Source: Promethearchaeota archaeon (lineage in GTDB: Archaea; Asgardarchaeota; Odinarchaeia; Odinarchaeales; JBHLKK01). From it: a DNA stretch of 7,574 bases. The notes below the pieces were generated by a model. The model searched no databases. It worked only from the letters and a program-made list of their open reading frames with translations, and was not told where the DNA came from. Position numbers and translations under genes: made by a program. Shown one piece after another: positions 908-3,239 of this stretch (position 1 is its first letter; the number at the start of each line of letters is the position of its first letter). The stretch is from positions 1-7,574 of the forward strand of contig JBHLPL010000093.1 of the NCBI GenBank assembly GCA_048939465.1. Direction: 5' to 3'.

Positions 908-1175
908 GTTCTAGCCTTATTGGTGAGAAGTCCTCTTGCGAAAGCTGGGGGATGAGAGCACGAAACGCTTATATGTCCTTTTTTCCAGCACTTTACTTGC
1001 GTAGGCATAGGACAGGCCGAAGTCACGCCTGTGGAGACCAAGACCTCCGTAACCTACCCTTCTCGACGTGGCTCTAAGACAAGTCTCTGCCGACGGAGAC
1101 TGCGCTCGGGGTGGGTGGAGATCGAGTCCGGTCGCAGAAGCAGGAAGCCACCTGCGAAAGCTGGTGGTAGTTCAC
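908..1175 (+). mobile_element. Non-autonomous IS200/IS605-family derivative (PATE/MITE-like) with no tnpA and no tnpB ORF
   Basis: Matching imperfect subterminal hairpins: TCCTCT-T-GC-GAAA-GC-T-GGGGGA (931-952) and CCACC-T-GC-GAAA-GC-T-GGTGG (1148-1167). The right end reads GAAGCAGGAAG-hairpin-TAGTTCAC. GAAG (1144-1147) next to the hairpin predicts the observed TCAC end (1172-1175) under the IS608 guide/cleavage pairing rule. The left boundary after TTAA (904-907) is inferred and less certain. Confidence 0.8.
961..974 (+). promoter_or_regulatory. Archaeal BRE/TATA promoter inside the mini-IS
   Basis: CGAAACGC-TTATAT: purine-rich BRE directly followed by a TATA box, about 26 nt upstream of the start of the structured region (~999-1001). 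Confidence 0.6.
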
Positions 1176-1195
1176 AAGCAACATTTTACTTCATT
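1000..1195 (+). ncRNA. TnpB omega-RNA (reRNA)-like scaffold (~1000-1175) plus putative guide from flanking DNA (1176-~1195)
   Basis: Starts with the tnpB-3'-derived segment GTAGGCATAGGACAGGCCGAAGTCACGCCTGTGGAG (reads VGIGQAEVTPVE). Helices: CCTGT(1028-1032)/GCAGG(1140-1144), GACC(1036-1039)/GGTC(1130-1133), CTCC(1045-1048)/GGAG(1117-1120), ACCTACCC(1052-1059)/GGGTGGGT(1109-1116), hairpin AGTCTCTG-CCGA-CGGAGACT(1082-1101), and the terminal right-end hairpin. Confidence 0.7.
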
Positions 1196-1249
1196 CTTAA
1201 GGGGCCCGTGGCCTAGCCAGGATAGGGCACTGGCCTTCTAAGCCAGTAG

Positions 1250-1277
1250 ATCTGCCATGGAACCGAGCAGAGCTGAA
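1250..1277 (+). other. 28-nt tRNA intron at position 46/47 (relaxed BHB)
   Basis: Central helix CAGT/GCTG, bulges AG|A and AA|T, intron helix TCTGC/GCAGA. Removal yields a standard 5-nt variable loop. Confidence 0.88.
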
Positions 1278-1290
1278 TCAGGGGTTCAAA

Positions 1291-1318
1291 TGCCTTTTCA
1301 ATAAGAATGGGCTGAAAT
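1291..1318 (+). other. 28-nt tRNA intron at position 59/60 (strict BHB)
   Basis: T-stem AGGGG/CCCCT serves as the exon helix; central helix TTCA/TGAA; bulges AA|T and AT|T; intron hairpin GCCTTTTC-AATAA-GAATGGGC. Removal restores the T-loop TTCAAAT. Confidence 0.92.
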
Positions 1319-1335
1319 TCCCCTCGGGCCCGCCA

Positions 1336-2437: not shown

Positions 2438-2884
2438 TTAGATAATAATAGTAGAAGTGATAAGTTGTTGAGGGTTTTTAAGAAGGGATATCATTTTGCG
2501 ATTCAAATCGATAGCTGCTTTGTCCGCTCTAATCATGAGAGTACGTCCACAAATAAAATCGCTTTTGCGTCCGACTATATCTGAGGAGTGTGAAAAAGTC
2601 AGATCAGGATGACCATATCCAGTTATTACCTCCTTGAACTTGCCGACACCAAGAACTACCTGAATTTCTGCGCCTTCACAGCATGCGAATTCTTTGAATT
2701 CTGGACTTAGATCTCTTATCGATCTGTCGGCATTTACTCCGATGACGCAAGTACCTCTACTTCCGACAGTGGGAGCCATTGTTAATTCAAACGTGGTCTG
2801 GTGCGTTGCAGTTATATTGGGATGACCACATGCTTTGACGATTTCGATAGTCTTAGTCAATCGATTGCCTCGCAGTCTTTTCAT
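2438..2884 (-). CDS. DUF371 family protein
   Basis: Motifs GHPNITATH.TTFELT, RGTCVIGVNAD, G.GHPDLT, IVGRKS.FIC.RTLMIRADKAA.DL. Confidence 0.88.
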   Translation of the reverse strand: MKRLRGNRLTKTIEIVKACGHPNITATHQTTFELTMAPTVGSRGTCVIGVNADRSIRDLSPEFKEFACCEGAEIQVVLGVGKFKEVITGYGHPDLTFSHSSDIVGRKSDFICGRTLMIRADKAAIDLNRKMISLLKNPQQLITSTIII

Positions 2885-2969
2885 CTTTTTCTCCGCAAAA
2901 AGACCCCATCTGAAAGGGTGAAGATGAATTGCGGTATGTTTAAATGATTTTTTGGTAATTAAGTTTTGG

Positions 2970-3239
2970 GTAAGACACTCGTAAGAGCAAGGTTGATCGA
3001 CGGCATGGGTGTAACATTCAGTCTGGGAGCGCAGGCCTTGTGGGTGTATCCTGCTTGACGGGGCTACTAGCTGTTTTTGGCACAGTATGGAGCGGATCAG
3101 CCCAAAGGCTGAAAGAGATCTTCCTGTGCAGCCCTGAATTCGGAGTACAGAAACCTCCCCTCTGAGAAGCCGAAGTTTACTCAGGTGTATAAGGCAGGGA
3201 GAAGGAGGAGGCTCCTTGCGAAAGCTGGGAGCAGCACAC
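2970..3239 (+). ncRNA. Structured non-coding RNA ending in an IS200/IS605 right-end-type hairpin; possible divergent omega-RNA or IS remnant
   Basis: GCTCCT-T-GC-GAAA-GC-T-GGGAGC (3211-3232) followed by AGCACAC aligns position for position with 1148-1175. Nested helices: GCACAG/CTGTGC (3080-3129), CAGCC-CAAA-GGCTG, CGGGGCT/AGCCCTG, CTGAG..CTCAG and CTCCC/GGGAG. G-U pairs favour the + strand. TTTAAAT box at 2939-2945. The 5' limit is approximate. Confidence 0.55.

Follow-up and report, generated by a model that had tools for sequence, protein, structure and literature searches.

Positions 915-1175 of the window, the 7,574-nucleotide stretch of archaeal DNA analyzed here, are almost certainly a gene-less, non-autonomous IS200/IS605 derivative that carries an omega-RNA scaffold. 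On a joint reading of the data, we consider it likely that this is a PATE-like element seated in the TATA box of a tRNA gene, and that it would act by the mechanism proposed below.

Limits and parts of the element

The limits of the element were taken from the empty loci of two congeners. Both G002 (L046) and G001 (L047), which belong to the same genus, share the DUF434/DUF5616 gene and the tRNA with the window but lack the element. Their empty sites read ...CTGCATTAAC(T/G)TTTAA followed by AAGCAACATT..., so that TTTAA is joined directly to AAGCAAC, with equal flank lengths and no duplication; the window reads ...CTGCATTAAGTTCTAG, the element, then AAGCAACATTTT.... These sites define an element of 261 bp and make the right boundary at 1175/1176, and with it the proposed guide, exact. 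An earlier note on this DNA had started the element at 908, but the empty sites put the left boundary at 915 and leave 908-914 as flank; its placement of the guide start at AAGCAAC was borne out, and the guide is true flanking DNA. To judge from these alignments, the insertion is 3' of TTTAA without duplication, as is usual for IS200/IS605 elements. Positions 910-914 now read TCTAG where the congeners' empty sites have the target motif TTTAA, and the subfamily copies in relatives' genomes are all preceded by TTTAA.

The element was also found at ~100% identity in metagenome contigs (DNA contigs) of three studies. Two of the three also yielded contigs of diverged relatives that lack it, one with its joint exactly at 1176. 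An empty allele at >99% identity was absent from the metagenome contigs, which drop rare variants, so that its absence there says nothing firm on excision.

Table 1. Features of the element and its surroundings, in window coordinates
Feature	Position	Strand	Basis
Left flank GTTCTAG	908..914	+	Alignment with empty loci G002 (L046), G001 (L047)
Left end: CCTTATTGGTGAGAAGTC, hairpin 932-951, GATGAGAGCA, CGAAAC 961-966, TATA GCTTATATG 967-975	915..975	+	
Omega-RNA-type scaffold	996..1175	+	Model R1 full-length match, covariation counts, single-sequence fold
P1 hairpin	1004-1009/1013-1018		
Long-range helix CCUG/CAGG	1028-1031 with 1141-1144		
Hairpin GGAG/CUCC	1033-1036 with 1045-1048		
Expanded stem	about 1053-1118		
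Flank between right end and tRNA, 26 nt, AAGCAACATTTTACTTCATTCTTAAG; would-be guide	1176..1201	+	Empty sites, metagenome contig joint
tRNA-Arg(UCU), encoded CCA, then T5 1336-1340	1202..1335	+	Rfam tRNA (23 bits, below threshold); ARAGORN after insert removal

Both ends carry subterminal, imperfect hairpins, CCTCTTGC-GAAA-GCTGGGGG on the left and CCACCTGC-GAAA-GCTGGTGG on the right (1148-1167), which have a T-T mismatch in common and whose stem differences all preserve pairing; there are no terminal inverted repeats. The right-end hairpin has GCAGGAAGC before it and TAGTTCAC (1168-1175) after it, and the arrangement GCAGGAAGC-hairpin-GTAGTTCAC agrees with that of the ends lying 3' of two intact tnpB genes (C2, C105) and one tnpB remnant (C69). 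Between the hairpins, the BRE-like CGAAAC and the adjoining GCTTATATG make a good archaeal BRE/TATA. This left-end layout is common to relatives L007, L008, L016 and L025-L030 and to the tnpA+tnpB element on C105. The ORFs inside the element (41-61 aa) had no Pfam match, and tblastn with five TnpB queries returned nothing in the element region and none on contig C24. The left-end hairpin, BRE/TATA, right end and loss of protein-coding sequence listed in the earlier note are all present, by inspection of the sequence and by the Pfam and tblastn searches.

The GC content of the element stretch is 0.52-0.61 against a genome mean of 0.43, and it sits between the DUF434/DUF5616 gene (210-875) and the tRNA gene. 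A GC-rich, structured stretch adjoining a tRNA gene would fit a structured RNA gene with a housekeeping role, such as a variant RNase P or SRP, that has no more than a likeness to a transposon end. We regard this as exceedingly improbable, given the IS605-type hairpins at both ends and the homology to a tnpB tail, and given that a search of the complete window against Rfam, with E allowed up to 1, yielded a weak match to tRNA alone and none to an omega-RNA or any other family. The housekeeping reading was rejected on the ground that the element is missing from the same locus in two congeners.

Scaffold structure and relatives of the element

The consensus derived from an alignment of 27 scaffolds comprises a 5' hairpin, the long-range CCUG/CAGG helix with three adjoining pairs, and the right-end hairpin. 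Across the 27 sequences and 20 pairs, 98.3% of cells can pair, versus 82% in shuffled controls and 28-46% with the partners slid; double-change cells numbered 81 versus 31, and 9 of the 20 pairs have compensatory changes, counts that are to be read with the structure having been derived from the same alignment and the sequences representing few lineages. The covariation whose absence would have counted against the reading in the earlier note is present, across six genomes. The window copy keeps all 30 invariant columns of this alignment (A1), as it must by definition, being one of the 27 sequences. Its own structure departs from that of the family in two places: two of the six P1 pairs are mismatched, and the short ACCC-GAAA-GGGG stem of the family is replaced by a stem that is 56 nt larger and still folds. 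The description of the scaffold helices as intact thus holds for nearly all of them, with the exception of P1 and with one stem expanded. Folded as a single sequence, the window copy is no more stable than its shuffles (z -0.74). Contigs of two metagenome runs from different studies have a C>T change at 1080, within the expanded stem, in a copy that is otherwise identical.

Covariance model R1 was built from 26 relatives in five other genomes, with the window copy left out, and used to search the whole genome. The best match was window 996-1175, at 83.8 bits and E 1e-18 over the full model length. Second was a decayed tnpB remnant on C77 (70.1 bits), followed at lower scores by ~15 copies of a 300-base family of this genome; the omega region of the intact tnpB on C2 scored 49.9 bits. 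These matches support homology of the scaffold to a tnpB 3' tail plus right end, which is omega-RNA territory.

Relatives of the element occur in six genomes of the phylum, with a left-end hairpin, TTTATATA, a scaffold of 95-150 nt, a right-end hairpin and (C/T)TCAC. The distance from TATA to the scaffold core CACGCCTGYGGA is 52-53 nt in the five relatives measured and 54 nt in the window copy. The L014 relative is a complete tnpB gene, and the same core lies in its last codons and downstream end. A 19-nt scaffold core, GAANTYACGCCTGYGGANA (L060-L139), was seen in >120 contigs from bacteria and archaea, with cyanobacteria, Bacillota, Ktedonobacteria, Thermoplasmata, Bathyarchaeia, Ca. Wukongarchaeum and others among the hosts. 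One reading frame of this core gives x-A-C-G-E, which suggests a tnpB tail and omega-RNA core that are widely conserved.

Within its own genome the window element is present once. A search for a second full copy by blastn and nhmmer, the copy-number check proposed in the earlier note, matched only the 40-nt ends and, weakly, C77. Other genomes hold several copies of subfamily relatives, with at least 8 in G018. The C77 match, at G000:C77:45336-45623 on the minus strand (L059), is a decayed tnpB C-terminal remnant (...DGDHNFTINILKRAL...) followed by the only other scaffold of this subfamily in the genome, and is probably a relic of the nuclease gene that the subfamily once owned here. The multi-copy gene-less families of this genome have the same architecture and lower R1 scores, whereas the window element, with its GC-GAAA-GC hairpins, TTTAA target and one copy, is a separate subfamily. 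It is also the only one among these gene-less elements seen to replace a tRNA promoter.

The window holds a further gene-less element of IS605 type, at 2885-3239 on the plus strand, with a left-end hairpin, a TTTAAAT box, a scaffold and a right end ...GCGAAAGCTGGGAGCAGCACAC; its family is ~350 bp long, with at least 12 full-length copies in the genome at 70-83% identity. Its left end abuts the ATG of a DUF371 gene (2882-2884, minus strand), so that the DUF371 promoter region is displaced too. The genome further holds about nine short units of the form AAGAAGAC-hairpin-AGTAGTT(C/T)AC, seen at C5:3072, C23:17237, C23:1999, C73:16377, C77:37742, C88:7414 and C105:1043. The upstream half of these units is left-end-like and the downstream half right-end-like, and such units may be solo ends or ultra-short fusions of one end to another; one lies directly before the left end of the C105 tnpA+tnpB element.

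The adjoining tRNA-Arg(UCU) and its promoter

The gene downstream of the element is a tRNA-Arg(UCU) interrupted by two inserts of ~28 nt at non-canonical places, one in the variable region and one in the T-loop. ARAGORN found no tRNA in the window as it stands and returned tRNA-Arg(tct) once both inserts were removed. Orthologues are present in all six genomes of the order, and the exons are still conserved. Since ARAGORN gave none in the window and 26 tRNAs in the genome, the census was made with the Rfam tRNA model and by hand, which brought the tRNA matches in the assembly to 31; with so few matches, inserts of this kind probably conceal many of the genome's tRNAs. The tRNA-Arg(UCU) gene is the single one found in an assembly that is 91% complete, and on both these figures a second may exist. 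AGA is the commonest Arg codon, at 43% by a crude count.

The tRNA genes of this genome have AAAG-TTTAAA boxes that start 31-36 nt before the mature 5' end. In the congeners, GTTTAAAAG stands at that distance in the empty sites; the element interrupts this box midway, between TTTAA and AAGC. The equivalent position in the window reads GTAGTTCACAAGC, and no TATA-like box was found 25-35 nt before the tRNA. As judged from the empty sites, the sole tRNA-Arg(UCU) found has had its TATA box split by the insertion, which lies 26 nt upstream of the gene. Among the order-level relatives the regions upstream of the tRNA are too diverged for a TATA comparison. The nearest same-strand promoter to the tRNA is the element's own, and the tRNA is probably read through from it. 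Whether the tRNA depends on that promoter we regard as close to an even question, leaning slightly against. No paper describing an IS605 element inserted in the TATA box of an archaeal tRNA gene turned up in a limited literature search.

We propose the following course of events. An internal deletion would have joined the left end and promoter of an ancestral element to its last ~180 bases, that is, to the tail of the lost tnpB plus the right end, which make up the omega-RNA scaffold. The shortened element would then have inserted 3' of TTTAA into the TATA box of tRNA-Arg(UCU), after the species split from its congeners. The left-end promoter would start an RNA near 998, a start predicted from the TATA position, and this RNA would fold as an omega scaffold and continue past the right end through the 26-nt flank, probably reaching the tRNA as well. 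Cutting by RNase P at the tRNA 5' end would release an omega-RNA with a 26-nt guide, and a TnpB made elsewhere, for which the C2 gene is the nearest kind, could use this RNA to cut the vacant site TTTAA+AAGCAACATTTTACTT. The role of the guide would be the published retention or homing role of TnpB, with no new cellular target. The T4 run at 1183-1186 could end some transcripts with no more than 8-11 nt of guide.

We lean toward the element being transcribed from its own promoter, on the strength of the promoter's position and conservation; read-through into the tRNA, if it occurs, would be indirect evidence that this promoter is active. The alternative is that the element is a dead, inert fossil with a silent promoter, and that the tRNA uses a cryptic start in the right end or spacer, or is backed by a second tRNA-Arg(UCU) in the unassembled 9%. 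Decay of this kind would explain the single copy, the change of TTTAA to TCTAG, the weakened P1, a fold no better than shuffles and the lack of matching TnpA or TnpB ends, and the assembly is incomplete. We nonetheless think it improbable, because the BRE/TATA is intact and stands at the family's conserved distance from the scaffold, and because R1, built without the window copy, still gives it the full-length top score, with the 30 invariant columns kept. A silent promoter is also hard to square with conserved tRNA exons that have no TATA-like box of their own at the usual distance.

A further step, which we put forward tentatively, is that the element took over the expression of an essential tRNA, giving a natural precursor in which omega-RNA, guide and tRNA follow one another; dependence of the tRNA and decay of the target motif would then lock the element in place, and IS605 elements that target TTTAA or TTTAT may often be tolerated in promoters because the guide-RNA transcript runs on through the gene. 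Both motifs resemble the archaeal TATA core. Ten of 37 R1-defined right ends, the window's included, have a same-strand gene start 15-50 nt on, versus 12.6% of intergenic TTTA[ATC] sites (P about 0.014), in a count that used crude ORF calling; a first, cruder count gave 7 of 37 versus 6.5-10%. IS605-type elements may therefore often land in promoters and read into the gene.

Possible partners and comparison with known systems

The assembly encodes three intact or contig-split TnpBs, on C2, on C105 and split across C70/C55, and one Y1 TnpA, on C105. The C2 TnpB has all three Pfam domains, aligns to the ISDra2 TnpB at E 1e-60 and keeps the D, E and D motifs, as read from its alignment to the AI-designed chain 9yyg. 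The left end of the C105 tnpA+tnpB element has the same layout as that of the window element (CTTATTCGGTGGGAAGTC-hairpin-...TTTATAG) with different hairpin stems, and the C105 element and the intact TnpBs have other hairpin stems and more distant omega regions (28.8-49.9 bits with R1). No transposase-linked element or TnpB with matching hairpin ends was found in the assembly, and the search for a cognate tnpA or tnpB with the same GC-GAAA-GC ends that the earlier note had suggested thus came back empty. Its proposal of a TnpB encoded elsewhere fared better in part: an intact C2 TnpB with a related omega region exists, but none of the TnpBs is linked to the scaffold of this subfamily. On these sequence comparisons, a working TnpB partner among the genome's copies is possible; that the element is still used by a TnpB is, in our estimate, rather unlikely.

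In a genome-wide search with a 16-nt guide, the best second matches had 2-3 mismatches and none followed TTTAA. The TAM-adjacent matches sought in the earlier note therefore yield no second target in the genome, and the only sensible target is the vacant site. This bears on the suggestion, made in the same note, that the guide might serve a nuclease-dead, TldR-like relative of TnpB. On such a reading the RNA would bring this protein to the tRNA promoter, or to one located elsewhere, to control transcription. TnpB-derived regulators that arose by exaptation are known, and the guide region overlaps what was formerly promoter-proximal DNA of the tRNA. Such a role is nevertheless very unlikely here, since a second target after TTTAA is lacking and the sequence before the target at the element's own locus, GTTCAC, is no TAM. 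In addition, no nuclease-dead TnpB was identified in a check that covered the C2 copy, the best-matching partner, which retains its D/E/D motifs; and sister elements are scattered over unrelated places, as is usual for copies of a transposon. We thus retain the reading of a transposon-derived guide directed at the vacant site. That each new insertion would make a new guide is correct in the sense that this is ordinary for every IS605 element, but the present one has a single copy and looks immobilised. It is probably locked in place, its TTTAA now being TCTAG and matching transposase-linked ends being absent.

This copy is useful in that its boundaries are proven by the empty sites of sister species, its scaffold is backed by covariation across six genomes, and a transposon promoter appears to replace the promoter of an important tRNA gene. 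Should the read-through be true, the locus would provide a natural guide RNA that is processed out of a tRNA precursor, and would show how transposons that target TATA-like motifs come to be tolerated, and then fixed, in compact archaeal genomes.

The PATEs of Haloquadratum walsbyi are reportedly a related case. The window element resembles the omega-RNA of the ISDra2 TnpB (structures 8exa, 8h1j and 8bf8), of which the C2 TnpB is a clear homologue: in both, the scaffold comes from the tnpB 3' end together with the right end, and the DNA immediately beyond the right end supplies the guide. It differs from ISDra2 in having no tnpB attached, and the likeness is one of origin and layout, with no Rfam family matched. 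Gene-less PATE-like IS elements have been described, and PATEs often encode omega-RNAs that need to be used in trans by the TnpBs of other elements (Meers et al. 2023 preprint, PMC10055086). Like the ISGst PATE-like families of Geobacillus stearothermophilus (PMC10055086), the window element has subterminal hairpins at both ends and no protein gene, inserts 3' of a short motif without duplication, and carries an omega scaffold that would need a TnpB from elsewhere. Unlike these families, it belongs to an uncultured archaeal host, has an archaeal BRE/TATA and a 56-nt stem expansion, is present as a single copy, and lies inside a tRNA TATA box. Gene-less IS200/IS605 elements that keep an omega-RNA are thus already published (PMC10055086), and the new point here is the proposed takeover of a tRNA promoter.
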